Source of the DNA: Candidatus Fermentibacterota bacterium | GTDB lineage: Bacteria; JAFGKV01 | DNA: 38,090 bases | Direction of reading: 5' to 3' | Assembly (NCBI GenBank): GCA_016928395.1 | Contig: JAFGKV010000225.1 | Location: 1 to 38,090 of the forward strand | Shown here: positions 3,241 to 22,901 of the stretch, piece by piece | How the letters are laid out: every line of letters starts with the position of its first letter | Numbering within the stretch: the first letter of the stretch is position 1 | Made by a program: the position numbers and the translations under genes | The notes under the pieces: generated by a model | The model's input: only the letters and a program-made list of their open reading frames with translations | Told to the model about the DNA's origin: nothing | The model's database searches: none

Positions 3241-5943
3241 TCAGCGCATCAGCACCACCCGCTGGGTTTGCTCTTGCCCGTTCCAGCACAACCGAAGAAC
3301 GTAGACGCCTTGTGGGAGCAGGGAGGCGCCGCGCACCGTGTTCCACTCCAGGCGATGTGAACCGGCAGCCAGGCGTCCGTGTGCCAGCACCGCACGTTCC
3401 CTTCCACTGAGATCGAAGACCGACAGGCGAACAGGCCCGGCTTCGGGGATCGTGAAGCTAACGCTCACCTTCCCGGCAGTCGGGTTCGGCGCGACGCCGG
3501 ACAGCGTGAATTCAGTTGGGTCGGGCGAAGGCCCGGAACCTGATGCCGGTCCCACGGGGAGGATCGTGCGCCAATCCAGCAGGTTGCCAAATATGGATGG
3601 GCATTGGAACCAGAGGACGGCGTCACCCGGCCTCCATCCGACGGTGGTGAACGTGCCCTGGTAGTCGCACCAACTGAGCTGTTGCAGCGGCACGTCCAGC
3701 GTGTCACCGCCGGGCGTGAGGATGGTGAGCAGCGGCGGGTAGGGAGAGTCACAGTGGGAGTTCCAGTAGACGTCGACATCGACCTGCGTCCCCGTGTCCG
3801 GTTCCGCCGGGGTGAGGGTGAAGGAGAGCGAACCCACATACTTCCGCTCCGCGAAGTAGTTCCGTGGCATGGGGTTGAGGAGCGATTGGGATGCATCCCG
3901 GTACGATTCGGTCCACACAGGTGGCGCTGGTGGAGCCGAACCGGTGAGGAGCCCTCGCCACGCTTCGTCGGTCATCCGCTCATCGTACGGCACCGTGAAC
4001 TCGTAGTAGGGAACGTGCACGCCGCGAGTAAGCACTATCACGTCCGCACGGCGAACTGCCACCAGCATCACCCATGGATAGCCGACGCCTTCTTCAAGGG
4101 CCTGGAAAGTGACAAGGTCCGTGTGCACATCGGCGATTACCGGGGTCTGCGCTATCTCCTCCCAGTCAGGTTCGCCGGGGTGAAGCCATTCCTCCTCCAC
4201 CGAGATGATGACCTGCAGACTGGCACCGATGGCACCCAGGAGCCCATCCTGCGCGGGAGAGAGCTGCCCATCCGTCAACTCAAGCAACGATATCTCCCGC
4301 AGGTCGCGGCACAACGCGCCGAGGCGCGCCAGCCTCTCCGCTTCCAGTGGGCCAAGTAACCCAAGACCGCTGAGCCCTGAATGGGTATACTCGGCCAACG
4401 CCGCAAGCCTCGCCCAGAGGTAAGGATTGGGCTCGACATAGTTAAGGAGGAGTGCCGCTCCGGGCGGAGCACATAGCGCGTATGACTGCTTCGCATACAG
4501 GATCGTGTCATGGCGCAGCTCTCCCCAGCTCATGAGCGACGTTGACAGCTCCCTATCCGACCAGGCGGGATTGGTCATGAACACCGGCCACCCTTCGCCT
4601 TTCTCGAAGAGGAGCGGCATGAGGGAGTAGAGCCAGTTGTAGTAGAGGTTCCCGGCCCATGTCGAGTCTGAGACCGATGCCATGTACTCCCGCATGGAGT
4701 CGAGCTGCGCTACGTACTGCGGATCGGTGAACTCGCCGTAGACCTCATCGAGAATCTCCCGGGCGCGATCGCAGCCTAAGGACGCCATGATGTCCAGTCC
4801 GCGAGGTGTGGTTCGCACGCAATGAGGGAAGACGACCTGCTCGAAAACGTAGGAGTCGGGGATGAATCGCTGCCCCATGAGACGCATCCCCAGGAATGAG
4901 GCATTGGCGATCTGCGGGCCGGCGAACTCCTCCCGTGCCTGGTCAATGAACTGGCCCAAGAGCACCACGTCTGCCAGATCGGCCACGCTCAGGTCCGCCA
5001 GGGGAGCCCCGTAGACCGTCTCAGCAAGGGTCTCATACTGCTGGGGCGTCACGTCATCCGACCGCCCCACGAAGAACACTGTCGGCCAGTAGATGGCGTG
5101 CCAGTCGGTTTGAGTCTGTGAATGCAGTGCCATATCCCTGGCCAAGAGGAGAGCCGAAAGGGTGTGGTCCCGAACGAATCCGTCGGGGAACTCCTCGTCC
5201 AGCATGAAGGCCATCCTCCCGTACCACATCATTGCTCGGAAGTAGGCTGCCAGGGTATCGTTGGTGGTGTAGTGGCCCCTCACCAGGTACTGGGAGTAGT
5301 CTTCGTCATAGCTGAACGAGGGAGACATCTGCATTCCGGCGTGCTCGTAGATGAGGTTCAGCTCCTGGCTCACAAGGTTCGTAACGGAAGCCGGAGCCTG
5401 GAACGTCGAATCCAAGAGGCTTGCAGCAACACAGTGGAATGCCAGAAGCCTGGTAGCCGCGGAGAGCTCCGCGGCTGAGGACGCCTCATCGTAGGTACCC
5501 AGCGCCGCGGCGACCAAAGTGGTGTTCATGGTCTTCAGCGTGTCGAACAGATTCGTCAGTTCCGCCTTCTTAAGGATCCAGTCGAACAGCACGTGATAGG
5601 CATGCAGGAATGCGTCGGTCGAGACGAACGTGGGGACCCCGGTTTCGCGGTTTTCGTTGTAGACGTCGTACACTTCGGCCCTGCCCGGTGCCGGGATCAC
5701 GATGAAGGAGTTGGCCGCCAGCAGGGCTTTCTCCTGCTCGGTCAGCGTGAACTGGTCGGCGTTGATCACATTGGAGAGGTCGGGCTCGATCTCCCACGGG
5801 GCGACATCGGGCGTTACGGTCACCGGAATGGGCACATAGGTCCCGAACGGATTGGTCATCGGTTCGGTGATGTCCGCCAGCATGTGATCCAGCGCCCACC
5901 CAGACGCGGCCAAAACGATGATGAGAACAACTGCCGCCTTCAT
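3241..5943 (-). CDS. Secreted DUF3160-domain protein with C-terminal FlgD-Ig/T9SS-type sorting domain
   Basis: Signal peptide; EDYSQYLVRGHY, YFRAMMWYG, MGQRFIPDS, SWGELRHDTILYAKQSY, YVEPNP and IADVHTD motifs; C-terminal PNP...VFDLSGR...GVYVLRL domain. Confidence 0.85.
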   Translation of the reverse strand: MKAAVVLIIVLAASGWALDHMLADITEPMTNPFGTYVPIPVTVTPDVAPWEIEPDLSNVINADQFTLTEQEKALLAANSFIVIPAPGRAEVYDVYNENRETGVPTFVSTDAFLHAYHVLFDWILKKAELTNLFDTLKTMNTTLVAAALGTYDEASSAAELSAATRLLAFHCVAASLLDSTFQAPASVTNLVSQELNLIYEHAGMQMSPSFSYDEDYSQYLVRGHYTTNDTLAAYFRAMMWYGRMAFMLDEEFPDGFVRDHTLSALLLARDMALHSQTQTDWHAIYWPTVFFVGRSDDVTPQQYETLAETVYGAPLADLSVADLADVVLLGQFIDQAREEFAGPQIANASFLGMRLMGQRFIPDSYVFEQVVFPHCVRTTPRGLDIMASLGCDRAREILDEVYGEFTDPQYVAQLDSMREYMASVSDSTWAGNLYYNWLYSLMPLLFEKGEGWPVFMTNPAWSDRELSTSLMSWGELRHDTILYAKQSYALCAPPGAALLLNYVEPNPYLWARLAALAEYTHSGLSGLGLLGPLEAERLARLGALCRDLREISLLELTDGQLSPAQDGLLGAIGASLQVIISVEEEWLHPGEPDWEEIAQTPVIADVHTDLVTFQALEEGVGYPWVMLVAVRRADVIVLTRGVHVPYYEFTVPYDERMTDEAWRGLLTGSAPPAPPVWTESYRDASQSLLNPMPRNYFAERKYVGSLSFTLTPAEPDTGTQVDVDVYWNSHCDSPYPPLLTILTPGGDTLDVPLQQLSWCDYQGTFTTVGWRPGDAVLWFQCPSIFGNLLDWRTILPVGPASGSGPSPDPTEFTLSGVAPNPTAGKVSVSFTIPEAGPVRLSVFDLSGRERAVLAHGRLAAGSHRLEWNTVRGASLLPQGVYVLRLCWNGQEQTQRVVLMR

Positions 5944-5969
5944 GACGCGCCTCCTTCTTGTGGAAATCT

Positions 5970-8426
5970 TTACCTGATCAGCACCACCCTGGCCGACGCC
6001 CTCGCATCGCCTGCCTCTGCCGAACAGACGTACGTCCCGCTGGGCACGCGAAGGCCGCGGTCGTCGAGACCGTCCCAGACGAGACGGTGCGTGCCTTCCG
6101 GCAGAGGTGATGCGGCTACGATCCGGACGCGTCGTCCACCAAGGTCGAAGACCGACACATTAACCGGGCTTGGCTCCGCCAGGAACAGCCCAAACGGCGT
6201 CATCCCCGTGCTCGGGCACGGACCAACCAATCTCAGTTGCAGGCCTGCCTTCCAAGCGGGCAGCACGGGGCACCCCAACCCGGTCGACCTCGCCAGCCTC
6301 AGCGTGCCGCCCGAACGGAAACAGATGCAAGGGGCATCGTTCCCATCCAAGGCGAGAGACGTATAGTCGCCCAATTCATCCAGATCCTGAACACGCCACC
6401 CCGACTCATCGCGTTGGGCGTACCGCACTCTATGGAAGACATGGTTCTCCGGCCACGATTCAACAACCTCTGTCCTGCAGTAGCCGACATGCGGATTGCC
6501 GTTGCTGTCCAGTGCAAGGGAGGCATAGCGCCCCATGGTCCAATCATCGTACGGGATGTCGACGGTCTCGAATGTCCATTCGCCGTTCGATTTGAGGGCA
6601 TACTCGAGGCGGCCGTTCACGGAGTAGGCAACATGCGGTTGATTCGAGGCATCGACGGCCAGCGAGGCAGCATCTATCGCTCCACTCGAGTCCACCAGTC
6701 CACTGATCCATCCGGAGTCGGTCAGGTGAGCATACATGAGCGCATCGGTGCGCTGCATCCCCTCTTGCGAGACGGTGTAGCTGTACACGACGGAGGGAAT
6801 GCCAGCGAGATCAAGGGCAATTGACGGGCAACTCTGGCCGCGCTGGTCGATCAGGGACACTTCCCATCCCAGTTCGGTGGAGTGTGCGTAGAAGATCCCT
6901 GACCCGTCGAGCCCTGTGCTGATTATGTGCGGCCTGTTCATGGTGTCGACGGCAAGGTCGCACGCACCCGCGAAACCGATCTCGCTGGTGGTCCAACCGC
7001 TGTCATCGCGCACGGAGTAGCAGAGATTGCCGGGTGGAGACCAGAACGACACATGTGCACGACCATCGCCATCCTCCGCCAGTGACGAGTGCTGGCCCAC
7101 CGACTGGTTGATCAGATGTCCCATCGCGACAGTTTCATATCGCCACGAGAACCCATCCCAGAATGCATAGTCAAGATCACCACGCTCATATCCCAGCGAC
7201 CTGCAGTAGCTGACATGAGGATTACCCTCCGGATCCATGGCGAGCGAGCAGTACTCGCCCACCCCGAGGCCCTCACTGTCTGCCACTTCGAGGATCCACC
7301 CCGCGGAGTCAGGACACGCGTATTCCAGCATGCTGTGGAAGTTGTAGCCATCATAGTAGGCATAGCTGTAGACAATGCGTGGTGCACCCAAGGGATCGAG
7401 GCCTATCGAAGTACTGTGATGCGAGAGGATATCCTGGGTCCAGCAGATGGTCACGATCTCCCACGTCGAACCGACCTTCGTTGCATACTTGTGCTGCTCG
7501 CTTGCCCCAAAGCTGATGTGCGGAGTGCCATCTTCCTCAAGCACAAGCGATGTGGCGCCTCCGCTTGACCCTTCCGCTCCCACTGTCTCTTTCACCCAGA
7601 CCGATCCATCCCAGGAAGCATACTTCAGATTGCGGTGAGCCCAGTCCCAGTAGCTGATCCGGGGATACCCCTGGCTGTCCAGCGCGATCGAGCAGTACTC
7701 ACCCACCCGGTCTGACTCGTCAACTGTGTCGACCCGCCATTCGACAGCTATGCGCCATGCGTGCTTTAGGCTCTGCGCCGTGCTGTCGAAGTAGGCAACA
7801 TGAGGCGTTCCGTCCGCATCGAGCGCGAGCGATGTGTAGAACTCGGCACCTTCAGAGCCCGGTACGGCTTGGATGGTCCATCCGGAGGCGGTGAGAGCCG
7901 CAAACTTGAGCTTGTCGCCGGTCACATCACAGTAGCTGATCCGAGGGAAACCCTGATTGTCGAGGGCTACGGAGGTGGCGCTCCCCACGTCGCCTGCGCT
8001 GTCCACGGCATGGATCGACCATTGCGCACCATCCCAGAATGCGTAGCGCAGATCGCCGTTCCGGGCATCGAAGTAGCTGACATGCAGGTGATCGCCTTGA
8101 TCGATCGTCACGGACGCGTATGCCCCGACCTCGGCACTCTGGTCAACGATCTCATCATGCCATCCGGTTCCATCGCGCCAGGAGTGGTACAGACGATCGC
8201 CACCATAGATGAGGTGGGCTCGCCCCTGGCTGTCAATCGCCACGCACCGGTCAGTCGTGAGTTCGAACTCCCTGGGCCAATCGATGGTCTCAACCGCCCA
8301 GCCAAGGTCCTGAGCGATCGACGGTCGCGGAAGAGCTGTGCCGAAGAGTGCCACAGCCGCGAATATCGCTCGGCCGAGAGCCAGCCACGTGGCTCTGGCA
8401 GTTCTTGCCGTTTCTGACCGTTTCAC
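5970..8426 (-). CDS. Secreted repeat (probable beta-propeller) protein with FlgD-Ig/T9SS-type C-terminal domain
   Basis: Signal peptide, many W..ETVD...VG.Y.SLALD..G.PHISY...LKYA repeats, C-terminal VFDLGGRRVR...WDGLD...PSGTY. Confidence 0.85.
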   Translation of the reverse strand: MKRSETARTARATWLALGRAIFAAVALFGTALPRPSIAQDLGWAVETIDWPREFELTTDRCVAIDSQGRAHLIYGGDRLYHSWRDGTGWHDEIVDQSAEVGAYASVTIDQGDHLHVSYFDARNGDLRYAFWDGAQWSIHAVDSAGDVGSATSVALDNQGFPRISYCDVTGDKLKFAALTASGWTIQAVPGSEGAEFYTSLALDADGTPHVAYFDSTAQSLKHAWRIAVEWRVDTVDESDRVGEYCSIALDSQGYPRISYWDWAHRNLKYASWDGSVWVKETVGAEGSSGGATSLVLEEDGTPHISFGASEQHKYATKVGSTWEIVTICWTQDILSHHSTSIGLDPLGAPRIVYSYAYYDGYNFHSMLEYACPDSAGWILEVADSEGLGVGEYCSLAMDPEGNPHVSYCRSLGYERGDLDYAFWDGFSWRYETVAMGHLINQSVGQHSSLAEDGDGRAHVSFWSPPGNLCYSVRDDSGWTTSEIGFAGACDLAVDTMNRPHIISTGLDGSGIFYAHSTELGWEVSLIDQRGQSCPSIALDLAGIPSVVYSYTVSQEGMQRTDALMYAHLTDSGWISGLVDSSGAIDAASLAVDASNQPHVAYSVNGRLEYALKSNGEWTFETVDIPYDDWTMGRYASLALDSNGNPHVGYCRTEVVESWPENHVFHRVRYAQRDESGWRVQDLDELGDYTSLALDGNDAPCICFRSGGTLRLARSTGLGCPVLPAWKAGLQLRLVGPCPSTGMTPFGLFLAEPSPVNVSVFDLGGRRVRIVAASPLPEGTHRLVWDGLDDRGLRVPSGTYVCSAEAGDARASARVVLIR

Positions 8427-8522
8427 CTCAGCCCCCTTTCATCGCCTGTGCCTCGACTCAGAGCACCTGGTAGGAACACTGAGCCAACAGTCAAGACGGC
8501 GCTCCCAGTGAACACCCATCCC

Positions 8523-10937
8523 CTACCTGATCAGCACCACTCGCGTCGACGCCCACGCACCTCCCGCCTCCGCCGAGCAGATGTAGGTGCCACTGGGCAC
8601 GCGAAGGCCGCGGTCATCGAGGCCGTCCCAGATGAGGCGGTGGGCGCCCTCGGGCAGAGGCGAGGCTGCCACGATCCGGACGCGCCGTCCGCCAAGGTCG
8701 AACACCGACACATTGACGGGGCTCGGCTTCGCCAGGAACAGCCCGAACGGCGTCACGCCCGTGCTCGGGCATGGCCCTTCGATGCGGAGGGTCAGATCGG
8801 AAACGTCCGGCGGTGTGCCATGCACCCAGAGGCCTTCGCCGGTAGAGAACGCGTACTTGAGGGAACGCGTGCCAGGGTCGTAGTAGCTGACGTGGCGATG
8901 GTCTTGACTGTCCAAGGCGAGCGAGCAGTACTCACCTGTTCCATACGAATCGTCAATGATGCCGATGTGCCAGGTCTCCCCATCCTTCCAGGCAAACCGC
9001 AGATCCTGTTCCCCTCCTTCCTGGGAGTAGCAGATGAGAGCGCGGCCCTGGCTGTCAATGACAAGGGAGGAGTATCTGCCGACATTCGGCCACGGATCGA
9101 CAGGCTCTATCTCCCAGCCCGCCCCACCGTCGTGGGCGTACCGCAGTCCATAGTCGAGGGAGTAGCTGATATGCGGCCTCCCGGACGCGTCGAGTGCAAT
9201 GGATGGCGTCGAGCGGTAGGCCATGCTGCTGTCGATTCGATCGATGCGCCACTCGGAATCCCGTCGGCATGCATGGAAGAGGTGGTAGCCGTCCTGATAG
9301 GCGAGGTGCGGATTGCCACTGGCGTCGAGTGCCATGGAGGGACACCATCCGGCACCAACGGTCGTAGTCGTCCAGCAATTGGCGCGCTTGACGGCATAGG
9401 CAACGTTCTCACACCAGCTCAGACGTGTCGAGTATGCGACATGTGGCGCCAGTCCCTGATCAACGGCAACTGCAGTCCGGCACTGATAGTATGTAGATCC
9501 AGTGATCGACCCCACTGCATCGATGGACCATCCTTCGCCATTGTTGCGGGCGAACCTTACGGTGCTGCCGGAGTGGTAGGCGATGGAGGGAAAACCGGCA
9601 GCATCAACGGTGAGCGATGCAGCGGTGCCCGCTGAACCCAAGGTGTCTACACACTCCACGATCCAGGTCACGCCATCCCAACGAGCGTACCGCAGATCGG
9701 CTCGGGACTTGTCGTAGTAGGCAATCGACGGCGCACCTTCAGGTGATGCGGCAATGGACGACCACCAGCCCGGATCGTCTTCGTGATCGACAAGCTGACT
9801 ACCCTGCCAATTGATTCCCTCCCGCTTCATGATCCGAATCTGACAACGTTGCGTGGAAGGGTCCTTTCGTACCCAGGCCACCCACGGAGCACCATTCCCA
9901 TCGACGTCGAACGACAGGCACTGAGCGAGCGCACTCACCGGTGCGCCTTCCTGGTGCCACCCGGCGCTATCTTTCCATATGTAGCGGAGAGCGGGCCCGC
10001 TCAAGTAGCACGCGTGCACGTGATCCTGGCCGTCAACATCGCACGAAAGCCCCCTGACGTGGCCGGCATTCTGAACCGCGGTCTCAATAGCCCAGTGAGA
10101 TCCATCGTTCCAGGCATGCATCACCGAATAGGTGGGATAGCCCAGGGCGCCAACCATGTGTGGGTGATTCGCCGAGTCGAGCCCCAGGGAGACGTAGTAG
10201 GCGTCACTCCAGTACTCCTGGACAACCCAGCCCGACTCGTTCTTGAAGGCGTACTTGTTCCCGTTGTATGCGATATGCGGTCGGTTACTGACATCAATGG
10301 CGAAGGACAGAGTTCGCGAGTACCAGCATGTCTCCGTTCCGACCTGCGCGATGTACCAACCGTCATAGGTGGTTCGGTACCCGTAGAGGAGTCGCGCCGT
10401 GCCATCCATGCTTCGATAGCAGACGTTGACTTGATTGAGGCTGTCGATCGCAATGCATGGCTTAGTCGCCGAGTAGCCATAGTCCAGAACCCGGGTCTGC
10501 CAGCCTGACGAAGTCTTCGTGCCGTAGCGGAGCTCGTGCGAACCGTAGCCGCCCGAACGAGCGGCCCCATAGAGGACATGTGGAACGCACAGAGAATCCA
10601 CCGCAAGGGCAGCCGCGCCTTTCGAGAACTCACTCCCGTCAACCAGTTCCGTGTGCCAGGCGATCCCATCGGACCAGGCATACCAGAGCTGCAGTCCCGC
10701 GTACCCCCCCGTGTGCCAGTAGATGACATGCGGGTGTCCCTCCCGGTCGGTGCGGAGACTGCGTTCGCCCATAGAGTCGAACCACTTCGGCCCATCCACG
10801 AAAGTGATCTCCCAATCCTGGGCGAAGCAGGGCAAGGAAGTCGCGAGAACGGCCGCGGACAAAGTGAGAGCTGCGAGACGCCAGAGAGAGCCATGCCCCT
10901 TGAGTGCGAGAAACCAAGTTCTGCTCATCGATCCCAC
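8523..10937 (-). CDS. Paralogous secreted repeat (probable beta-propeller) protein with FlgD-Ig/T9SS-type C-terminal domain
   Basis: Same repeat type as 5970-8426; the last 84 aa differ from the paralog at only 8 positions. Confidence 0.85.
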   Translation of the reverse strand: MGSMSRTWFLALKGHGSLWRLAALTLSAAVLATSLPCFAQDWEITFVDGPKWFDSMGERSLRTDREGHPHVIYWHTGGYAGLQLWYAWSDGIAWHTELVDGSEFSKGAAALAVDSLCVPHVLYGAARSGGYGSHELRYGTKTSSGWQTRVLDYGYSATKPCIAIDSLNQVNVCYRSMDGTARLLYGYRTTYDGWYIAQVGTETCWYSRTLSFAIDVSNRPHIAYNGNKYAFKNESGWVVQEYWSDAYYVSLGLDSANHPHMVGALGYPTYSVMHAWNDGSHWAIETAVQNAGHVRGLSCDVDGQDHVHACYLSGPALRYIWKDSAGWHQEGAPVSALAQCLSFDVDGNGAPWVAWVRKDPSTQRCQIRIMKREGINWQGSQLVDHEDDPGWWSSIAASPEGAPSIAYYDKSRADLRYARWDGVTWIVECVDTLGSAGTAASLTVDAAGFPSIAYHSGSTVRFARNNGEGWSIDAVGSITGSTYYQCRTAVAVDQGLAPHVAYSTRLSWCENVAYAVKRANCWTTTTVGAGWCPSMALDASGNPHLAYQDGYHLFHACRRDSEWRIDRIDSSMAYRSTPSIALDASGRPHISYSLDYGLRYAHDGGAGWEIEPVDPWPNVGRYSSLVIDSQGRALICYSQEGGEQDLRFAWKDGETWHIGIIDDSYGTGEYCSLALDSQDHRHVSYYDPGTRSLKYAFSTGEGLWVHGTPPDVSDLTLRIEGPCPSTGVTPFGLFLAKPSPVNVSVFDLGGRRVRIVAASPLPEGAHRLIWDGLDDRGLRVPSGTYICSAEAGGAWASTRVVLIR

Positions 10938-12592: not shown

Positions 12593-12737
12593 GGGGCACC
12601 TCTAGGGGCCGTTACGATGCGTGGACTTGGCACACATCACCCCTTCCCTCCTCGAACCAACGGCAAGAGAAGACACGTTTCGTGGATCAAGATACGCGCG
12701 ACATCGCCGAAGTGCACCCGTAGGCAAGGGTTCCCCG

Positions 12738-12805
12738 GCGCGTGGGCAGCGAGAGTCTCTGGGAGCCGACGACAATACCCATAAACGACCCTGCTGCCCA
12801 CGCGC
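12738..12805. repeat. Perfect 13-bp inverted repeat (REP-like)
   Basis: GCGCGTGGGCAGC (12738-12750) / GCTGCCCACGCGC (12793-12805), separated by 42 nt. Confidence 0.6.
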
Positions 12806-13188
12806 ACCCGCGCGATGTCGCGCGGGCCTGCCGATGCTCACCTGCTCCCGACCCCTCCTGCGAAGCTGTCCAACTGCCGGACGGCTTCTTCTGCGGCACA
12901 CGTTGCTGACTGCTGACGATACCACGGTGCCCGGCCGCGTGCGTCCCTCCGGATAAACCGGAGAGAAACGCATACCCGGTGCGTCCAGGCGCCATGGTGG
13001 GATACAACACCTCGTCTCAGTCGACCTCATGCCCGCCTCCCGGTCTGAGAGTTAGGCCGGAGTTCGCCGGGGCAGGGGACGGGGCGCGTCGATCCAGCGA
13101 TCCACACGCCCCGTCCCGCAGCCTCCTCCCTCGCAGCGATGGCAAGGCGTGCGATCCGGCATGCGACCGAAGCCGCGCGGGCTTCTAC

Positions 13189-13206
13189 TTGCACAGACCG
13201 TGCCGG
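13189..13206 (-). promoter_or_regulatory. Candidate sigma54 (-24/-12) promoter
   Basis: Minus strand reads CCGGCACGGTCTGTGCAA, i.e. GG-N10-GC, close to consensus TGGCACG-N4-TTGCA. It points towards the secreted-protein cluster. Confidence 0.55.
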
Positions 13207-13308
13207 AATCACGCAGGGCCACGAGACATCTTTGGGCGGCGCTCGCGGCCCCCGGGGGCCTGAGCCAAACCTCCACGGAGCCGAGGTGGGGCATACGCGG
13301 CACCGGCC

Positions 13309-13346
13309 CATGCAAATCGTGCACGCCCCGGCATGCAAAGCTTGCG
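13309..13346. promoter_or_regulatory. Candidate tandem upstream activator sequences for a sigma54 activator
   Basis: TGCA-N5-TGCA (13311-13323) and TGCA-N5-TGCG (13334-13346), 23 bp apart, both preceded by CA, about 105-140 bp upstream of the candidate -24 box. Confidence 0.4.
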
Positions 13347-13508
13347 CGGTGGAGAAGAAGGAACGGGAATCCGGTGGGTGAGGTTCGAAAGACCAGAAAA
13401 CCAAAGACCCGAGGGGGTGAACCGAAAGACGCGATGGATTCTTGGGTGGGATTACGGTGAACTCATACTCCGCTGTGTGTTCGCTCTCGCGCCGCCAAGG
13501 GGATCGAA

Positions 13509-13677
13509 TGTAGGGGCAGGGCTAGCCTCTTGCCCGCCCGCGGAGGCAAAGCTCCGCTTTCGCAGAGCAACCTTTGTGAACACATCTGTGGAACATGCGG
13601 AGGGCGACCAGAGGCGGTCGCCCCTACGACGGTTGGGGCGCACTATTTCCGTAGGGGCGAGACTCTGTACCCGCCCG
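13509..13677. repeat. GTAG-type REP-like palindrome cluster
   Basis: GTAGGGGCAGGG..TTGCCC, an inverted copy GGGCGACC..GGTCGCCCCTAC, and GTAGGGGCGAG..CCCGCCC. The same family occurs at 37367-37752. Confidence 0.75.
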
Positions 13678-13749
13678 TGAAAGCCACGACCTATCCAACC
13701 TTCGTCCGCCATTCATCGAATCATCCACCCGTCCAATCGGCCAACCCTC

Positions 13750-13825
13750 TACTCTCAACCTCGAAGAATCCGAGTGCACCCCGCGCCCTCTGAGGCCAGC
13801 CTGAACCCCTGAAACTGCGAGCGAA
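13750..13825 (+). repeat. Dispersed ~70-bp repeat, copy 1
   Basis: TACTCTC.ACCTCGAA...GAGTGC.CCCGCGCCCTC.GAGGCC...CTGAACCC; further copies at 20300-20370 and 37763-37845. Confidence 0.75.
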
Positions 13826-13839
13826 CCGGCAGACCAGCC

Positions 13840-14577
13840 CTAGTGCAGTGTGCCGCCTGCGGCGATCCCGAGGGAAGTTCCCGAGCCGATCACGCGAACC
13901 GAAACCGTCGGCCCGAGTAGCACATCCGCGACGCTGCCCGCCCACACGGCCACTACGCCGTAGCCCAGGAGACGCCGGATCTTGTGGGCTCGGTTGTAGT
14001 CATCATAGGCCGAGGAGATCTCGCCTCCCGTGGCACGCAGGTAGCGCGCATGGGTGTCGTCTTCCCACGTGGCCGCCGCAACCCATCCGGCCAACCCCGA
14101 TAAGCCGACCGCGGCGAAGGCCACTCCTCTGGTCTTGCGTCCCATGGTCCACTGGCCCCATCCCGGGACAAGCATGCTCCGAAACGCCGCGCCGGGGCGG
14201 CTGTCCTCCAGCACCAGGTAGACGGCCGCGGATTCGCCCTCGGCTTCCGCCCCGCTTAGAGCCCGCGCAGCCTCAAACTCGGAGAGGATCTTCGGCGACA
14301 CCTCGCGCGGATCCAGTTCGATGGACGGATCAAGGGAAAGCGCAACACCGAAGCTGGCCCGGGCTTTCGGGCGATCCCCCAATGCTGCCTGTCCGAATCC
14401 TTTCCACAGATGAAGCCCGGCCAGCTCGGGCAGGCTCAGCCCGATTGACTGGGCCAGCAACGAGTCCACCCGTCCGATCATCTGCTGATAGCGTCCAGAG
14501 TCGAAATCGTCGCGAAGCGGCGCCGGCATATCCGTCATGGAGAACACCGCACACGCCATGAGGGTGAGGATGACCAC
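13840..14577 (-). CDS. Exported TPR-like protein with C-terminal membrane domain (DUF5683-like)
   Basis: Hydrophobic N-terminus, helical TPR-like segment ending ALSLDPSIELDPREVSPKI, then AAFRSMLVPGWGQW and hydrophobic segments. Confidence 0.75.
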   Translation of the reverse strand: MVILTLMACAVFSMTDMPAPLRDDFDSGRYQQMIGRVDSLLAQSIGLSLPELAGLHLWKGFGQAALGDRPKARASFGVALSLDPSIELDPREVSPKILSEFEAARALSGAEAEGESAAVYLVLEDSRPGAAFRSMLVPGWGQWTMGRKTRGVAFAAVGLSGLAGWVAAATWEDDTHARYLRATGGEISSAYDDYNRAHKIRRLLGYGVVAVWAGSVADVLLGPTVSVRVIGSGTSLGIAAGGTLH

Positions 14578-14580
14578 GAG

Positions 14581-15798
14581 CTACCGGATCCTCATGATGG
14601 GCCGTGCCACATGCCCATCCGCGTCGATGCTGACCATGTAGACACCGGTAGGCATGTCGGCGCCCGGACGGAATCGGGCGTAGGCCTCATGTGACATCCC
14701 CTCAGTGCGACAGACCATCCTGCCGTCCAGCGAATGGAGTGCGATGCTCCACCGTCCGGCGACTCTCAGGCTCGCGGAGATCTCGACCTCGTGCCTGAAC
14801 GGGTTCGGCCAGACGGAGAGCAGGAGTGGCGGGGGACCAACCGGCTCATGCGCGAGAGCATCCACCGTCTCCAGGTCCGCACGCTCACAGGTTCCCGTGG
14901 CCTCATACCCGACCGGGCCGGTCCCCCCGGCCGCCACCACGTATCCTCCGACAGTACCCCCCGCCATACGCGACCGTGCGACTCCCATGTTCTCCAGAGG
15001 CACCCACGCTCCGGTGATCGAGGACATCACCAGAACATCCCGGCTTGCTCCCTCAGTGCCCTCCCCTCCCATCAGGATCAAAGAAGACCCGAACTCGCAG
15101 GCCAAAGCGCTGCCCCGGGCGCTGGGAAGCCCTGGGCCTTCCACCCATGTTCTGTCAGAGAACACCTCGGTGGTCCGGAGCGGGCCGTGGAAGTAGCCGC
15201 CGGTGATGACTGGGCTGCCCATGACCCCGCCCGCCGCGGCGACGCTGCGGGCCTGACTCAGCGCCTGCTCCAAGGCAAACCCTGTGGCAGGCCCGTAACG
15301 ATAGACAGTGGCCAGAAACTCGCCGCTCGCATCCAGCCCGCCAACGACCAGGGCGGATCCTCCGTCCAGAACCACGGCGCACGCTCCCCGAAGGGCGACG
15401 GGCAGCGTGTCAGCGTGGACGACCCAGGTGCCCTCACCAGGCCGCCACGACCACACGGTAGCGGAGAGTGTATTGTCTGCAGTGCTGCCGCCGAAGAGGT
15501 AGATCCTTTGCCCGATGAGGGCGCAGGCCATGTCGGCCCGGGGCGCGGGAAGACCGGGAAAACCTCCAACCCACCTGTCCTCGGCCGGCAGGTAGGCCTC
15601 CACCACACTCTGGAGGCCCTGATCTCCGGTGCCTGATCCGCTGCGCACACGGCCTCCCATGACATAGAGCGTGTCGCCCTTGACGGCCGAAGCCGCATCC
15701 ATCCGTGGCGTAATCATCCTCGCGCACGGATGCCACGCCGTCGCGAAGAGCGGCCATGCCGGGAATGCCAGCACAAGAACGATCAGTGTACGTCGCAT
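14581..15798 (-). CDS. Secreted Kelch-repeat protein with T9SS-type C-terminal domain
   Basis: Signal peptide; six GG-centred Kelch blades (YVMGG, YLFGG, LVVGG, VITGG, ILMGG, VAAGG); C-terminal WPNPF...TGVYMV. Confidence 0.85.
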   Translation of the reverse strand: MRRTLIVLVLAFPAWPLFATAWHPCARMITPRMDAASAVKGDTLYVMGGRVRSGSGTGDQGLQSVVEAYLPAEDRWVGGFPGLPAPRADMACALIGQRIYLFGGSTADNTLSATVWSWRPGEGTWVVHADTLPVALRGACAVVLDGGSALVVGGLDASGEFLATVYRYGPATGFALEQALSQARSVAAAGGVMGSPVITGGYFHGPLRTTEVFSDRTWVEGPGLPSARGSALACEFGSSLILMGGEGTEGASRDVLVMSSITGAWVPLENMGVARSRMAGGTVGGYVVAAGGTGPVGYEATGTCERADLETVDALAHEPVGPPPLLLSVWPNPFRHEVEISASLRVAGRWSIALHSLDGRMVCRTEGMSHEAYARFRPGADMPTGVYMVSIDADGHVARPIMRIR

Positions 15799-15830
15799 GA
15801 CGAGATCCTCCGTGTGGGCTCCATATGCAT

Positions 15831-17399
15831 CTACCGTTCCGGAGTCTTGCGTAGATCGATTTCGATGGAAATCGTATCGCCCGGGCCGAGGCGTACCCGT
15901 TCGGCCTGACTCGAAAAGAAGGGGTTCTCGGCCATCACTTCATGGGACCCCGGCCACAGCGCGATGGGTTCGGCCAGCGGAGTCGTTCCCACCGGCACGC
16001 CATCCACCTGCAAGGATGCCCATGGGTCGGTCAGCACGCGGAGAAACCCAAGGCTGTCTGCCAGCGACACGAAAAGCGATTCCCGGGCTCCGGGCGCCAG
16101 ATCCACAGCCGCGTGGACCTCGGGGAAGGTCAAGTGTCTCATGGTTATCTGGTACCGTCCCGCCGGCAAGGTCAGCGGATCGGTCAACGGTGTCGTGTCC
16201 CGTACCTCTCCGTCAATCATGATCTCGGCCCAGGGCACGGTAGCGATCCAGAGCGCGGCACGCGTGGGGTCTGCGGCCTCTGCAAGAGGTGGAATGCCTC
16301 TCGGGACCGGAGCAAAGACGGGTTCCGCCGGGATGAGGGTTGTGTTCCTCGAACGCTCTGAGACCTTTGCCGACGGAATCATGGATGATGAGTCGACCAC
16401 CGCCGCCGCAACTGGTGCTAGAGTGGGAGACGCGATCTGTGCGATGATCGTATCATGGGAACCGGCATTCGACCCTGGTCCGGCCGGGGCGAGTGACGCG
16501 GCGCGGCGGGGCATCCGCAGCACCGCCATCCCAACAAGTACACAGAGCACCGCCGCCCCACCGGCGACCCAGGCCCGAATCGGCCTCCGGTCAGCAGGCA
16601 CCACCGGGCCGGGCCCGCCCTGCAGGAGACCCCTGGCCTGGGCAACGCCCTCGGGTCTTTCCGACGGGTTTTTCTCCAAGAGTCCGGCGATGAATCGCCG
16701 TGCCTCCGATGGTGTGCCCGGCGGCAGGGACTTAACGGGATCAGCCTCCAGGAGCCCGTGTACGACCTCCTGGAATGTCTGACCAGGAAACGCCCGCCGC
16801 CCGGTCAATGCCTCGTACAAGGTCGCACCCAGGCTGAAGAGATCGGAGCGAAAATCGGTGGCGCCACCCCGGAGGGTCTCCGGATCAAGGTAGGCGGGAG
16901 TGCCGACCAGTGTGTCACTCTGGGTCGCCGCGGGGCTCTGTAGAAGACGGGCCAGGCCCAGGTCCGCCAGTTTCGGCCCCTTGTCGCTCAGCATGATGTT
17001 CGAGGGCTTGATGTCGCGATGAAGGATCCCTGCTTCATGCAGCGCTTCCAACCCGTCCAGCAGCGCCAGGGCCATTGGCTTCAGCTCGTCCCACGTCAGG
17101 GCACCCTCCCTGATTCGCTGTGCCAGGTCCGGGCCGCGCACGAACTCCGAGGCCAGGTAGAGCCTGTCTTCAGCTTCGCCGAAGTCCCAGACCTTGACCA
17201 CCGCGGGATGATCGATCCTGGCCAGGGCCTTTGCCTCCCGCTCGAACCTCCCCCGACGCTCGGGCCAGTTGAGCCCCCCCGCCACAAGTACCTTGAGGAA
17301 GACCTCCCGCTCCAGATGCACATGAACGGCGCGGTAGGAGAGGGCCTGCGCGCTTTCGCCGATGGGCGCGATGATCCTGTACGGGCCGATATCAGCCAT
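15831..17399 (-). CDS. Hanks-type Ser/Thr protein kinase with TM helix and two PEGA-like domains
   Basis: FEREAKAL, HRDIKPSN, KLADLGLA, GTPAYLDPE and SDLFSLG motifs; TM segment WVAGGAAVLCVLVGMAVL; two PWA.I.IDG...TTPL repeats. Confidence 0.92.
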   Translation of the reverse strand: MADIGPYRIIAPIGESAQALSYRAVHVHLEREVFLKVLVAGGLNWPERRGRFEREAKALARIDHPAVVKVWDFGEAEDRLYLASEFVRGPDLAQRIREGALTWDELKPMALALLDGLEALHEAGILHRDIKPSNIMLSDKGPKLADLGLARLLQSPAATQSDTLVGTPAYLDPETLRGGATDFRSDLFSLGATLYEALTGRRAFPGQTFQEVVHGLLEADPVKSLPPGTPSEARRFIAGLLEKNPSERPEGVAQARGLLQGGPGPVVPADRRPIRAWVAGGAAVLCVLVGMAVLRMPRRAASLAPAGPGSNAGSHDTIIAQIASPTLAPVAAAVVDSSSMIPSAKVSERSRNTTLIPAEPVFAPVPRGIPPLAEAADPTRAALWIATVPWAEIMIDGEVRDTTPLTDPLTLPAGRYQITMRHLTFPEVHAAVDLAPGARESLFVSLADSLGFLRVLTDPWASLQVDGVPVGTTPLAEPIALWPGSHEVMAENPFFSSQAERVRLGPGDTISIEIDLRKTPER

Positions 17400-18882
17400 G
17401 CCATTCCTTCAGCTTGTACTGCAGCCAACGAAGGGAGACGCCGAGGGAATAGGCCGCCTGGGTACGATTGCCGCCCGTACGCTCAAGCCTCGCCAGCACG
17501 GTGCGTCTGATCACGTCTTCCAGGGGTTGAGCCTCTGCCTTGTCCGAAGGAGGCGGTGGGGTCCGGCAGACGCCGAGCTCCAGATGCTCGTCGGCTATCC
17601 ACTCACCGTCGCTCACCAGAACTGCCCGCTGAATCACGTTACGAAGCTGCCTGACATTCCCCGGCCACCCATAGTTCAACAGAGATTCCCTAGCTTCCGG
17701 TGCCAGCTCCTTGAATGGCACACCGGCCTCACGGCAGAAACGGCGCACGTAGCTCATGGCGATGAGCAGCACATCGTCGCCCCGCTCCCTGAGCGGGGGC
17801 AGCGCGATGGTAAACACGTTAAGACGGTAGAACAGGTCTTCGCGAAACCTTCCGGCGCGGAGTTCCTCACCGATGTTCTTGTTGGTGGCCGCGATGACGC
17901 GCACGTCGACCCTTACAAGCCGGGAATCGCCCACCGGCCTGAACTCGCCTTCCTCAATGACGCGCAGTAGCTTGGTCTGAGTCACGGGGGCCATGTCGGC
18001 TACCTCATCCAGGAAGAACGTGCCGCCGTGGGCCATCTCAAAGAGGCCTTTCCGATCGGCCACGGCGCCGGTGAACGATCCTCGCTTGTGGCCGAACAGC
18101 TCGCTCTCCAGGAGTGTCTCGGTCAGCGAGCCGCAGAACTGCACCACAAAGGGGCCCACGCTTCGCGGCCCCTGGGAGTGGAGGCTTCGGGCCACCAGCT
18201 CCTTGCCGGTGCCACTCTCGCCGAGGATCAAAACCGGTGCGTGGGTGGGGAGCGCGGTCTCCATGAGCCGGAATACCTGACGCATGGCTGGGCTTTCTCC
18301 AATGAGACCTTCATCAGCGACCCGGTCGCGCAGGGAGCGGTTCTCGGCAGCCAGGCATTCCACCACTCGCGCCCCGTCCAGTGCCACGGCGCCAAGGGTC
18401 GCGAGGGCTTCGAGGAACTCCAAGGCATCCCGATCAACCGATGCTTCGGCGCCGCGCCAGTCAAGGTAGAGGGCTCCCAGAATTCGATCGCGGACTCTCA
18501 TGGGCACACACGCGACGGATCTGATACCGTGGAGTACCACACTTTCTGCCGAATCAAACCGTGGATCCGACGACGTGTCGATCGTGAGCACCGAGTTGCC
18601 CTGATCCAGGGCCAGAAGTACCGCGGATCCGGAAATGGCCAGCAGGCTGTGAGTCGCCTCCCTGTGGAACCCTCCCGCCGTTTCCACGCGAACAGCGCCC
18701 TCGGCGAATCCACCGGCCTCCGGCTCTTCACGAAGCACCGCAAAACCGCGCTCCGCCTCCAGCATGGTGCACGCCGTCTGGACGAGAGCGCGTAGTAGTT
18801 CGCCAGGATGGTGGATACCGGCCAGTTCCTTGGCCAGTGCCCGAAGTGCTTCATACTTCTCGCGATCGCTTCTCCTCTTCAT
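17392..18882 (-). CDS. GAF-domain sigma54-dependent (Fis-family) transcriptional activator
   Basis: N-terminal GAF (IRSVACVPM...LGALYLD), Walker A GESGTGKE, ESELFGH.RGSFTGA, FFLDEV, FREDLFYRLNV, WPGNVRQL, Fis HTH (GNRTQAAYSLGVS). Confidence 0.95.
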   Translation of the reverse strand: MKRRSDREKYEALRALAKELAGIHHPGELLRALVQTACTMLEAERGFAVLREEPEAGGFAEGAVRVETAGGFHREATHSLLAISGSAVLLALDQGNSVLTIDTSSDPRFDSAESVVLHGIRSVACVPMRVRDRILGALYLDWRGAEASVDRDALEFLEALATLGAVALDGARVVECLAAENRSLRDRVADEGLIGESPAMRQVFRLMETALPTHAPVLILGESGTGKELVARSLHSQGPRSVGPFVVQFCGSLTETLLESELFGHKRGSFTGAVADRKGLFEMAHGGTFFLDEVADMAPVTQTKLLRVIEEGEFRPVGDSRLVRVDVRVIAATNKNIGEELRAGRFREDLFYRLNVFTIALPPLRERGDDVLLIAMSYVRRFCREAGVPFKELAPEARESLLNYGWPGNVRQLRNVIQRAVLVSDGEWIADEHLELGVCRTPPPPSDKAEAQPLEDVIRRTVLARLERTGGNRTQAAYSLGVSLRWLQYKLKEWHG

Positions 18883-19904
18883 GGCACCACCTTGAACGCC
18901 GCTTCACGGGATCGGCCGCTGTTACCAAATGAATCGATGGTGTAGAGGGCCCAGTAGTATGTACCGACGCTCAAGGATGTACCCACCCGAGCCGAGTCGG
19001 TCAGCGCGGGGTAAAGCGGGCTTTCCCACGCCGTGGTCTGAACGCCGCTATCAATCCGGACCACGATGACCCGCAAGGCCGATGGATATGCCGGAACAGG
19101 GGGAACCCATTGAAGGAGGGGTGTTCTGCCTACTTCCTCCAGCCCCGTGGGTGATAGCAGCGTGGCGACCTCCCACACGACACGCACCAGGAGCTGTGTC
19201 TTCGGTGTTGACGTCGCCCCCTGCCCATCCATGGCCTGAAACAGAAACTCCTTGCCGACGAAATCCTCCGCATTGAACGGGAATCGGGTGGTCTCGTTCA
19301 GAATCGCGGAGAAGTTCCCCGGCACCGACCCCTGGTCCAATACCACCACGTCACTGCCGACGGTACACCACACGCTGTCGAGATCACCCATGCCATCGGG
19401 GTCATCGACTCGGGCGGTGAGGCTGATCCACTCCTCATACGAACCCGACGGCCACGTTTCCTCGTGGGCCGACGTCACGGATGCCTGAAAGATGACGGGC
19501 AGGGCGTTCAGGTAGAACTCGGCAGTGTTCCGCGAGGGGCCACTCGGAGGGACGACAAGGGTACAGGGAGCGAAAGCAGTTCCGGCCGTGACGACCACGA
19601 CCGACTCTGGCGGAAGGTAGAGCAGTGAGAAGGCGCCGCTGGAATCCGTGGAGTCGAGTATGCCGAAGCACGGTGCGGCCACCTGCACGCCCTCCAGGGG
19701 GCGATGGGGAGGAAACAGGCTCATCACGTGGCCGTACACGGGGGCGAATCTGCCCGACTGCGGGTCGAGAGGATTGTCGCGGGGGGCATCGCCCAGGCAG
19801 GAGCACATCGCGAGCATGATGAGCCACCACGGCCTCGGGATCCCCCGCTGTGGCCGCGGTACTCCGTACAGTGCTCCCTCTGTCGCTCTGAGAGTGTGGC
19901 CCAC
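18879..19904 (-). CDS. Probable lipoprotein with carboxypeptidase-regulatory-like and Ig-like domains (start uncertain, 19817-19904)
   Basis: Lipobox-like MLAMCSC followed by LGDAPRDNPLDP; PLEGVQV...TDSSGAF; VDDPDG..DLDSV; GTYYW. The stop overlaps the activator's ATG. The long N-terminal extension to 20309 looks non-coding. Confidence 0.75.
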   Translation of the reverse strand: MGHTLRATEGALYGVPRPQRGIPRPWWLIMLAMCSCLGDAPRDNPLDPQSGRFAPVYGHVMSLFPPHRPLEGVQVAAPCFGILDSTDSSGAFSLLYLPPESVVVVTAGTAFAPCTLVVPPSGPSRNTAEFYLNALPVIFQASVTSAHEETWPSGSYEEWISLTARVDDPDGMGDLDSVWCTVGSDVVVLDQGSVPGNFSAILNETTRFPFNAEDFVGKEFLFQAMDGQGATSTPKTQLLVRVVWEVATLLSPTGLEEVGRTPLLQWVPPVPAYPSALRVIVVRIDSGVQTTAWESPLYPALTDSARVGTSLSVGTYYWALYTIDSFGNSGRSREAAFKVVP

Positions 19905-20299
19905 TGCACTGCCCCGGTGCGTGCCTTGATGCAAGTGCCCGGCGTCTGCAATGCCGGGTGATGGTTGACACGAGAGAGAAACGCCCTGACGCGCGGGCGT
20001 CAACCCCCATCGCGGCGGTGGAGGTCGACGCACACCCAAAATCCGACGATCTCGGGCCGAGACCAAGCTGGTAGTCTGCAGCCGATGGCTGATAGATTCC
20101 TGCGCCGCGGGACCAGAGCTTGCCACTCGCGGATCGGTGAGACGATTCTTGGTGTTCTTCCCCTTGTTTGAGAGTCCGCCTTCAAAGGGCTGGAGGTGAA
20201 CCGCCCCAGGCTGTAGCCACGTCGCTCTGCGACGTGTCGCCCGGCGCAGAGCTTGGTCCAGCACCGCTGGATGCAGAGCGCCGGGGCTACAACTCGGCG

Positions 20300-20370
20300 T
20301 ACTCTCCACCTCGAAAACTGAGTGCGCCCGCGCCCTCAGAGGCCCGACTGAACCCTGGATCCTGAAACCT
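20300..20370 (+). repeat. Dispersed ~70-bp repeat, copy 2
   Basis: Aligns by eye with 13750-13825 and 37763-37845. Confidence 0.75.
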
Positions 20371-20392
20371 TGTCTGAGAAGGAGACTGGCGC

Positions 20393-21106
20393 GTGGATGA
20401 TTGGACGCAACGTGATGTGCTGCTCATATTCGACCTCGACGGTACGCTCTTCCAGAGTGAGACCGTCACGGTACCCGCGGTGCGTCAATCCTTCCATGGC
20501 ATTGGCCTGGCTGCCCCGCCGGACACTGCCATTCATGACTTCTTCGGTCGTCCCCATGCTGATTTTCAGGTATGGCTCCGTTCCCTCATACCCTCCGCAC
20601 AGGCAGATACGCTCCTCGCATCGGTCGACCGCCGCGAACTCGAACTCGTGGGTTTAGAGGGGAGGCTCTACCCGGGAGTGCCGGAGATGCTCCTCACCCT
20701 GCGCGCCCGCGTGAACCGAATGGCCATCTGCACCAATGGAGAGCGTGAGTACGTGAATCGCGTCGTCGAAGCGCAGGATCTTGGGCGTTACTTCGATGTG
20801 CTCCGTCACCGTCAAACCGATACCGACACCAAGACCACCATGGTCAAGGAGCTGCTGGCCCGGTTCCGGCCTGAGGCCGCCGTCATGATCGGCGATCGGT
20901 GGGACGATGTGGCGTCGGCTCGCGGCAACGCGATTCTGTCGGTAGGCGCCGGCTACGGCTACGGGGGGACGAAGGAGCTGTTGGAGACTGACGCAATAGT
21001 CGAAACTCCCCACCAGTTGCCCGAGGTGATCGACCGGCTGCTCGGAGGTTCGGCATGGTCCACTACACAGGTATCTACGTCGCACAGGAAGGGAGTGAAT
21101 GGATGA
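20393..21106 (+). CDS. HAD-family hydrolase (phosphatase-like)
   Basis: IFDLDGTL motif I, AICTNG motif II, MIGDRWDD motif IV; AAGGAG RBS. Confidence 0.92.
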   Translation: MDDWTQRDVLLIFDLDGTLFQSETVTVPAVRQSFHGIGLAAPPDTAIHDFFGRPHADFQVWLRSLIPSAQADTLLASVDRRELELVGLEGRLYPGVPEMLLTLRARVNRMAICTNGEREYVNRVVEAQDLGRYFDVLRHRQTDTDTKTTMVKELLARFRPEAAVMIGDRWDDVASARGNAILSVGAGYGYGGTKELLETDAIVETPHQLPEVIDRLLGGSAWSTTQVSTSHRKGVNG

Positions 21107-21894: not shown

Positions 21895-21906
21895 GACGAG
21901 CGGGCG

Positions 21907-21990
21907 GCAGTAGCCAGTCGGCAGTCGGCAGTAGGCAGTCGGCAGTCCGGCAGTAGCCAGTAAGCAGTAGGCAGTCGGCAGTCGGCGGTC
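21907..21990 (+). repeat. Degenerate heptamer tandem repeat (GCAGTCG/GCAGTAG)
   Basis: About 11-12 imperfect units directly after the PhzF stop. Confidence 0.8.
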
Positions 21991-22107
21991 AGGCCAGCCC
22001 CGCAAGCAGTCAGAAGGAGTCCGAAAGAGCTCGCGCGGAACCACTGCCGCAGAGCAGAGGAGGCGAAGGAGCCCAGACGTCACGACGGGGTGTCTGCCGC
22101 TGCAGAC

Positions 22108-22727: not shown

Positions 22728-22901
22728 ATGTCTCCGGGTCGTCGAGCGAGATTGTCGCTATCCCGGCGAAGACCCCGCCCATAAAGATCCTGGCCCTGGA
22801 ACGAGAGACGGCCGGCACTACGGCCGAGCGGTTCGTCCCGCACCTCAAGGCGGTTGCCCTTCGAGCGTGGGAGCTGCATCAGGCGGGTGTCATCCACGAA
22901 C

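Follow-up and report, generated by a model that had tools for sequence, protein, structure and literature searches.

A conserved cassette of a membrane Ser/Thr kinase and a sigma-54 activator, with a predicted promoter for type IX secretion cargo, in Candidatus Fermentibacterota

How might a sigma-54 activator be controlled when it is encoded next to a Hanks-type Ser/Thr kinase and among envelope proteins? In the textbook account, sigma-54 activators are controlled by receiver or ligand-binding domains. The question is raised by a block of five genes, here called g1 to g5, on contig JAFGKV010000225.1 of Candidatus Fermentibacterota, the whole of which (38,090 nucleotides, nt) was analysed as one window. 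The contig belongs to a metagenome-assembled genome (MAG) of 4.79 Mb in 343 contigs that is 94% complete. The answer that appears moderately probable is that the block represents a conserved cassette of the Fibrobacterota-Chlorobiota-Bacteroidota (FCB) group, in which an envelope kinase unit sets the state of the activator g2, and g2 drives genes for surface or secreted proteins carrying tails of the type IX secretion system (T9SS).

All five open reading frames (ORFs) lie on the minus strand (Table 1) and are tightly packed, with overlaps at 18879-18882 (g1/g2, 4 nt) and 17392-17399 (g2/g3, 8 nt) and gaps of 32 nt between g3 and g4 and 3 nt between g4 and g5. The original prediction, made from the letters of the sequence, had described five packed, co-oriented genes with these overlaps and gaps, and the ORF coordinates agree with it. 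Codon-position GC content backs g1 to g5 as coding. The open frame of g1 reaches 20309, and coding-like GC at third codon positions (GC3) is seen up to 19904 and not beyond, leaving the extension 19905-20309 unsupported. In Pfam domain calls on the five proteins, reported at E <= 0.01, the GAF-AAA+-Fis activator, the PEGA kinase and the Kelch protein that had been named earlier were recovered, and no histidine kinase, receiver or FHA domain was matched, as had also been claimed; the T9SS-type tail of g4 falls below its cut-off and the TPR assignment of g5 is marginal.

Recurrence of the cluster was evaluated by scanning an alignment of g1 against one genome per species, which gave 142 relatives, of which 80 loci were kept, all of them from MAGs, one bearing the label Ignavibacterium album. 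These loci carry the labels Bacteroidota/Bacteroidetes, Ignavibacteria-type, Calditrichota, KSB1, Kryptoniota, Rhodothermales, WOR-3, Eisenbacteria and Fermentibacteria. Gene order was read by tblastn, the genes of the window plus three divergent orthologue sets serving as queries, and the denominators are the loci with room for the gene in question. The activator g2 stands directly after g1 in 67 of 72 such loci, the order g1-g2-g3 is kept in 60 of 64, and g5 also follows in 52 of 58. At the g1-g2 junction the median gap is 2 nt, with 56 of 66 gaps at or below 30 nt; the corresponding values are -9.5 nt and 50 of 60 for g2-g3, -4 nt and 30 of 32 for g3-g5 where the Kelch gene is absent, and 36 nt and 6 of 22 for g3-g4 where it is present. 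Because g1-g2-g3 and g5 are kept and just 24 of 58 loci have a Kelch gene between g3 and g5, the core is a translationally coupled four-gene unit of g1, g2, g3 and g5, with Kelch as an optional insert. The gene-neighbourhood search suggested together with the original prediction thus finds the cluster recurring across FCB-group genomes, and the objection that homologues might not co-occur falls away; the five-gene operon first proposed holds as a conserved functional cluster, though not as a fixed set of five. Synteny across the 80 loci excludes chance adjacency. Five Calditrichaceae-type loci hold only g1 followed by Kelch.

A second sample was drawn from g5-like matches in 401 genomes, from which 20 regions were fetched; ten of these carry a g2-like activator and g1, and eight of the ten also g3. 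In three further loci from one genome family (L146-L148, in genomes G012, G333 and G181), a divergent g2-like activator lies beside a g5-like gene, with no kinase or g1 match, and this activator and g5-like pair may be a reduced form of the cassette.

The activator g2 has Pfam matches to GAF (4.2e-14), Sigma54_activat (PF00158, 2.7e-65, residues 193-359), AAA_lid_14 and HTH_8 (1.1e-07), with a Walker A motif GESGTGKE at residue 221 and a Walker B motif FLDEV at 290. Its sigma-54 contact loop reads GSFTGA, at residue 268; across 63 aligned sequences (62 orthologues and the window protein) the loop is GAFTGA in 47, GSFTGA in 15 and GTFTGA in 1, with the Phe kept in 62 of 63 and the Thr in all 63. 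With its GAFTGA-type loop and Walker motifs g2 looks functional, the activity of the Ser loop variant being assumed. The genome has an rpoN gene, Sigma54_DBD being matched at 200 bits by a 484-residue frame on contig C243. The best NCBIfam match of g2 is the NifA model (TIGR01817, an equivalog), over residues 11-437; since its score of 338.2 bits lies under the cut-off of 528.85, g2 is not NifA.

The adjacent kinase g3 matches Pkinase (5.9e-46) and PEGA (1.9e-07, residues 461-519), with a hydrophobic stretch at about residues 276-295; the kinase domain is placed in the cytoplasm. Residues K36, E55, H127, D129, K131, N134, D146, G148, T167 and E174 are invariant in 46 orthologues. The window protein has DLG in place of DFG, the latter being present in 57 of 60 orthologues. 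From its sequence the kinase looks catalytically competent. The genome holds 13 sigma-54 activators and seven Hanks kinases, and this contig is the only one with both. Kinase and activator modules are also found joined in single chains: each of the four giant ORFs examined (1591-1738 residues; from the same genus, the same family and two other genomes) is a Pkinase-AAA_16-TPR-GAF-Sigma54_activat-HTH_8 fusion. Together, the coupling and overlap of the genes, the invariant catalytic residues, the four fusion proteins and the sharing of a sole contig suggest that g3 controls g2.

A further STAND-type protein of 1311 residues, with adenylate/guanylate cyclase, AAA_16 and TPR domains, is encoded in the window at 32992-36927 on the minus strand, and its AAA_16-TPR scaffold is the same as in the kinase-activator fusions.

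For the remaining core members, assignments come mostly from their orthologues. The window g1 protein matches no Pfam family, CarboxypepD_reg falling below threshold, and CarboxypepD_reg is found in 45 of 46 g1 orthologues. Family members share an invariant Cys with D..R.NPLDP behind it, and C36, D39 and N44-P48 do not vary (residue 36 counted from the GTG at 19904); the Cys stands behind a hydrophobic stretch and is invariant in 46 sequences, which suggests a lipoprotein. An AlphaFold2 model (pLDDT, the predicted local distance difference test, 89.6) has three tandem beta domains, for which Foldseek returned generic Ig/Fn3 tandem matches only. Complex prediction for the g3 PEGA ectodomain (residues 375-522) with mature g1, from 46-row alignments, scored 0.00 and gives no answer either way.

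For the window g5 protein the only match is TPR_2 (E 0.0061), and an orthologue profile matches TPR structures in the PDB at E 2.7e-8. DUF5683 (PF18935) has no match in the window protein at E <= 0.01 and is matched in 5 of 44 orthologues (best 5.7e-08); in the nearest Atlas clusters it is found on 12-22% of members. A profile search with g5 in a set of 5.8 billion proteins gave 16 close relatives, none informative. At two other loci of the same genome a Hanks kinase is directly followed by a Zn-ribbon-TPR-PEGA-PEGA-DUF5683 protein, in which the g3 ectodomain and the g5 domains occur in one chain. The kinase, PEGA, TPR and DUF5683 modules thus recur together, shuffled, in the same genome, which supports a link between the kinase and g5. 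At one of these loci (contig C51) an FGE-sulfatase-domain protein comes next. An Atlas cluster joining DUF5683 and PEGA was also seen, as a lead only.

What the cassette might act upon is suggested by the DNA that follows it. The 80 loci were scanned for sigma-54 elements with TGGCACG-N4-TTGCW, GG and GC being fixed and matches scored out of 12. Within 450 nt downstream of g5, 24 of 56 loci have an operon-strand element that scores 10 or more, compared with none of 56 on the opposite strand or in shuffled sequence; at a score of at least 9 the counts are 34 of 56 on the operon strand, 4 on the opposite strand and 1 when shuffled. A palindrome, GYGCA-N5-TGCRC, taken in a form relaxed at one end, occurs after g5 in 42 of 56 loci, compared with 1.3% of control windows (random 450-nt windows from the same loci); 12 of the 56 loci have it in tandem. 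From the palindrome to a -24/-12 element downstream the distance is 57-185 nt (median 67.5) in 28 of the 56. In the Calditrichaceae-type loci the palindrome is instead found about 160-220 nt upstream of g1. In two annotated loci the next gene after the promoter encodes a protein of about 770 residues with several CarboxypepD_reg domains and a T9SS tail. The predicted promoter and activator-binding palindrome downstream of g5, ahead of T9SS cargo genes, would be the output of the cluster, which goes beyond the earlier note.

The same scan bears on the Kelch protein g4. Its Kelch_1 match is strong (1.4e-21) and its Por_Secre_tail match scores 19 bits against a cut-off of 27; a KSB1 orthologue of g4 matches FlgD_ig (3.2e-7) and CHU_C (2.5e-5). 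An element scoring at least 10 lies in the gap between g3 and Kelch in 8 of 25 loci on the operon strand, compared with 0 of 25 on the opposite strand. Because a sigma-54-like element of its own often precedes it, the Kelch gene is more likely an output of the system than a part of its sensor, as which it had been cast. In the window itself the case is weak: the possible element CGGAACGGTAGATGCA has no palindrome nearby.

In the window the arrangement is found in a 1.25-kb spacer between g5 and the next convincing gene, d4. Codon-position GC speaks against the three ORFs there (13452-13712, 13027-13404 and 12602-13030), which are probably not genes, having no coding GC pattern and Arg-rich translations unlike protein. 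The region 12400-13900 has no real Rfam match, and blastx with the spacer as query gave no match among the ORFs of all fetched loci. Two palindromes, GCGCAAGCTTTGCAT and GTGCACGATTTGCAT, lie 142 and 119 nt upstream of the sigma-54-like element CGGCACGGTCTGTGCA. Genome-wide, a palindrome and an element with a score of 9 or more occur together at ten places. Two separate palindromes are present solely at the window site; at another of the ten, on contig C157, two palindrome matches overlap. A DNA search with the spacer and the d4-d5 region in the two closest genomes matched repeat fragments only, so the window promoter has no conservation check in close relatives. A plain search for TGGCAC-N5-TTGC with two mismatches gave 33 matches against 37.6 expected and is uninformative, and a sigma-70 and terminator scan of 11900-20500 gave no promoters and six terminator-like sites against 4.8 expected.

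On contig C30 (minus strand, at about position 4832), one palindrome stands 89 nt ahead of a 10/12 element, a case judged too weak, with its single site, to join the regulon. The site precedes a weak GDSL-like gene and a sulfatase gene, and might serve this or a related activator as a second target.

Repeats of two kinds also occupy the spacer. An interspersed repeat of about 65-80 nt brackets the five-gene block (13750-13817 and 20300-20364), with a third copy at 37763-37828 near the contig end; the family is present at about 114 places in the genome (blastn-short) and is probably a repetitive extragenic palindromic (REP)-like or miniature inverted-repeat transposable element (MITE)-like intergenic element. 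Short GC-rich repeats of the CCCCTACG... and GGGCGGGAC... types are common to the spacer (13602-13682) and the contig end (37365-37755).

The first candidate targets are d4 and d5. In a KSB1 locus the same gene pair comes after g5, preceded by two palindromes and TGGCACGATAATTGAA. Beyond them lie co-oriented genes for two BNR_4/FlgD_ig paralogues and a DUF3160 protein (3241..10937), which may be in the same transcription unit as d4-d5, their membership of the regulon being predicted from position and sequence. In a genome of the same family the DUF3160 gene comes with a palindrome and a sigma-54-like element of its own. At the TIGR04183 cut-off of 23 bits, T9SS tails are recognised in d5 (33 bits) and in the DUF3160 protein (28.8 bits). 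Of the secretion system itself, the genome contains a SprA-like frame of 1892 residues (463 bits), and PorV-like matches all fall below cut-off. The BNR_4 paralogues, of about 810 residues, are 85% identical over their last 254 nt and have internal repeats at multiples of about 141 nt, as for propeller blades.

Table 1. Features of the cassette, its predicted output and related loci; positions are those of the window unless a contig is named.
Feature	Position	Strand	Basis or remark
g1, putative lipoprotein, three tandem beta-sandwich domains	18879..19904	-	Orthologue alignment, AlphaFold2 model, GC3
g2, GAF-AAA+-HTH_8 sigma-54 enhancer-binding protein	17392..18882	-	Pfam, motifs
g3, bitopic Hanks Ser/Thr kinase, one transmembrane helix, two outside PEGA-type domains	15831..17399	-	Pfam, orthologue alignment
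Possible sigma-54 -24/-12 element CGGAACGGTAGATGCA, 9/12	15826..15841	-	Overlaps g3 stop, 43 nt upstream of g4 ATG
g4, secreted Kelch beta-propeller, weak T9SS-type C-terminal domain, optional member	14581..15798	-	Pfam
g5, signal peptide, TPR segment, DUF5683-like membrane domain, two hydrophobic helices	13840..14577	-	Profile and orthologue matches
Non-coding spacer, 1.25 kb, g5 to next convincing gene, with repeat copies, palindromes and promoter	12593..13839	.	GC pattern
Tandem candidate activator-binding sites GCGCAAGCTTTGCAT (13333-13347) and GTGCACGATTTGCAT (13310-13324)	13310..13347	-	GYGCA-N5-TGCRY match
Sigma-54-like -24/-12 element CGGCACGGTCTGTGCA, 10/12	13190..13205	-	One of two minus-strand sites scoring at least 10 in the window
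d4, exported, no family	11996-12592	-	First candidate target
d5, CarboxypepD_reg and T9SS type A tail	11004-11999	-	First candidate target
BNR_4/FlgD_ig paralogues	8523-10937 and 5970-8426	-	Co-oriented cargo
DUF3160 protein, T9SS tail	3241-5943	-	Co-oriented cargo
Kinase-activator fusions	Contigs G002:C108, G001:C273, G024:C54, G006:C11 (loci L090-L093)		Pfam domain order
Kinase and Zn-ribbon-TPR-PEGA-PEGA-DUF5683 pairs	Contigs C51 (L128, 359-3412) and C117 (L129, 2255-5600)		Same genome

The anatomy of the cassette, its conservation and the position of the promoter and palindrome are observed; from these we infer that g2 binds the palindromes, that g3 acts on g2, and what kind of signal is involved. 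The proposed switch would consist of four coupled genes, encoding the periplasmic lipoprotein g1, the activator g2, the PEGA kinase g3 and the TPR/DUF5683 membrane protein g5. The kinase, with g1 and g5, would form an envelope sensor and most likely set the state of g2; it would phosphorylate or bind the GAF/linker region of g2 and so relieve GAF inhibition of the AAA+ ring. The activator would then bind the GYGCA-N5-TGCRC palindromes just downstream of the cassette and open the -24/-12 promoter, which would drive d4, d5 and probably the BNR and DUF3160 cargo genes, and in some lineages the inserted Kelch gene likewise.

Several points weigh against this account. It is built on sequence comparison, so that phosphorylation, binding and expression are all predicted, and g2, having neither an FHA nor a receiver domain, offers no recognisable docking site for a kinase. 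No RNA run was listed as covering 12500-20400 of the window. The synteny counts depend on the gene used for fetching (g1, or g5 in the second sample), and relatedness among the genomes makes the counts non-independent. The 80 loci from which the palindrome pattern came also served for counting its enrichment; independent checks on it were the control windows and the window itself, which was outside the discovery set. No palindrome is found after g5 in 14 of 56 loci, and no element scoring at least 9 in 22 of 56. In the window, GCGCAAGCTTTGCAT and GTGCACGATTTGCAT are the only two GYGCA-N5-TGCRY matches in 38,090 nt, a total not above chance (mean 1.40), and only their placement is telling. The CGGCACGGTCTGTGCA element is imperfect, at 10/12, and the promoter stands about 600 nt upstream of d4, the first convincing gene, compared with about 70 nt in two other loci.

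A first alternative, possible if on balance unlikely, is that the activator works alone, its GAF domain directly sensing an intracellular small molecule, metal or redox state, in the manner of NifA, NorR and PexR, and that g3, g1 and g5 act elsewhere, for example in secretion or processing of the cargo. Self-contained GAF sensing is established in GAF-AAA+-HTH activators (PexR, PMC12754779; PMC2941729), which also counts against control by the kinase unit. The lack of an FHA or receiver domain in g2 is as expected here, and the many GAF residues conserved among g2 orthologues would also fit a ligand pocket. However, coupling or overlap of g2 with g3 is seen in 50 of 60 loci, kinase-GAF-activator fusions exist, and a four-gene order kept across several phyla is hard to explain if the kinase is unrelated to the activator.

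An improbable second alternative retains the partnership of g2 and g3 in another form, with the kinase as a stoichiometric, anti-activator-like partner that would hold g2 at the membrane and release it on an envelope signal, phosphotransfer to g2 being dispensable and autophosphorylation serving as the switch. The overlapping g2 and g3 genes suggest equal production, and NifL-NifA (PMC12998190) is a precedent for a GAF activator controlled by protein-protein contact. The kinase has, however, no NifL-like PAS or GHKL domains, and because its catalytic residues are all invariant, catalysis appears to matter. That the genes are mere neighbours making up no system is scarcely credible, contradicted as it is by the g1-g2-g3 order across many phylum-level labels and by strand-specific enrichment of promoter and palindrome at one fixed place.

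Control of g2 by the envelope kinase unit also admits a more specific and rather doubtful version, a secretion-coupled feedback in which g3 would read the level of its own T9SS cargo in the periplasm or at the surface and gate g2 by Ser/Thr phosphorylation of the GAF region. The ground for this is that the PEGA ectodomain, g1 and the cargo all appear to carry related prealbumin-like beta-sandwich domains of PEGA/CarboxypepD_reg type. If true, enhancer-binding proteins would gain a new class of input, and type IX secretion its first regulator dedicated to cargo level outside PorXY-type systems.

Short of that, the cassette points to a route from envelope to transcription different from the textbook ones, with an activator that is tied to a putative lipoprotein, a DUF5683-like protein and a membrane-bound Ser/Thr kinase. 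DUF5683, PEGA and an unnamed lipoprotein family thereby gain a concrete setting open to test, and the cassette predicts a binding site, a promoter and a T9SS cargo gene set as read-out. Because all carriers found are MAGs of poorly studied lineages, the predicted regulon is one of few handles on surface-protein control in them.

Other features of the window lie apart from the cassette. Intergenic DNA at 21884-22004, 28011-28065 and 37258-37324 holds tandem arrays, GGCAGT-rich and GCTATCAGC-rich, whose period is about 14-15 nt. Three copies of an 82-nt repeat, 70-96% identical, occur at 22936-23165, in or next to a 160-residue ORF (22854-23336) without a Pfam match, and a 633-residue ORF at 24800-26701, also without a Pfam match, contains an internal direct repeat of 239 nt, 76% identical, with a 300-nt period. 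Toxin-antitoxin remnants or modules are found at 891-1415 and 24136-24885, with a HicB-family match and, C-terminal in a 249-residue frame, a HigB-like toxin domain.

Among known systems, no description of the cluster was found in the full-text literature, supplements and subscription journals being outside the scope of the search, and the original view that no characterised system has this composition is upheld within that scope. The words 'enhancer', 'NtrC' and 'PEGA' are all absent from a 2018 review of Hanks kinases. What is new would be an undescribed, widely conserved sensor cassette with a predicted T9SS regulon; the sigma-54 and enhancer-binding machinery is of the ordinary, known kind. 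The closest in layout is NifA with NifL, which shares the order of GAF, sigma-54 AAA+ and Fis-type HTH domains, a co-encoded sensory partner, and a nearby upstream site with a -24/-12 promoter. The partner of g2 differs in being a membrane Hanks kinase with PEGA domains, for which only Pkinase and PEGA-type matches, and none to PAS or GHKL, were obtained. The predicted targets also differ, being T9SS-tailed proteins and not nif genes, as does the site: that of NifA is TGT-N10-ACA, compared with GYGCA-N5-TGCRC here. In the NtrB-NtrC system, tandem palindromic sites with TGCA/GCAC-like half-site cores lie about 100-150 nt upstream of the -24/-12 promoter. The cluster is alike in its tandem upstream palindromes and unlike in having no HisKA, HATPase_c or Response_reg match.

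The pairing of a Hanks kinase with a sigma-54 activator is itself shared with Myxococcus xanthus, for which Jelsbak et al. reportedly proposed in 2005 that FHA-domain sigma-54 activators are coupled to Ser/Thr kinases; g2 is unlike these in having no FHA domain. PexR, also of Myxococcus xanthus, has the same GAF-AAA+-HTH build as g2, and in the passages found its GAF domain keeps the AAA+ domain inhibited in the absence of a signal, H2O2 being sensed through a metal centre in that GAF domain and the targets being peroxide-defence genes (PMC12754779). Those passages give PexR no kinase partner, the word 'kinase' appearing in them once, for a reagent enzyme (PMC12754779). Finally, the kinase-activator fusions and the cluster both unite a Hanks kinase with a GAF activator, the fusions as cytoplasmic STAND-type single chains without a PEGA, lipoprotein or DUF5683 partner, and the cluster as separate genes with a membrane-bound kinase.

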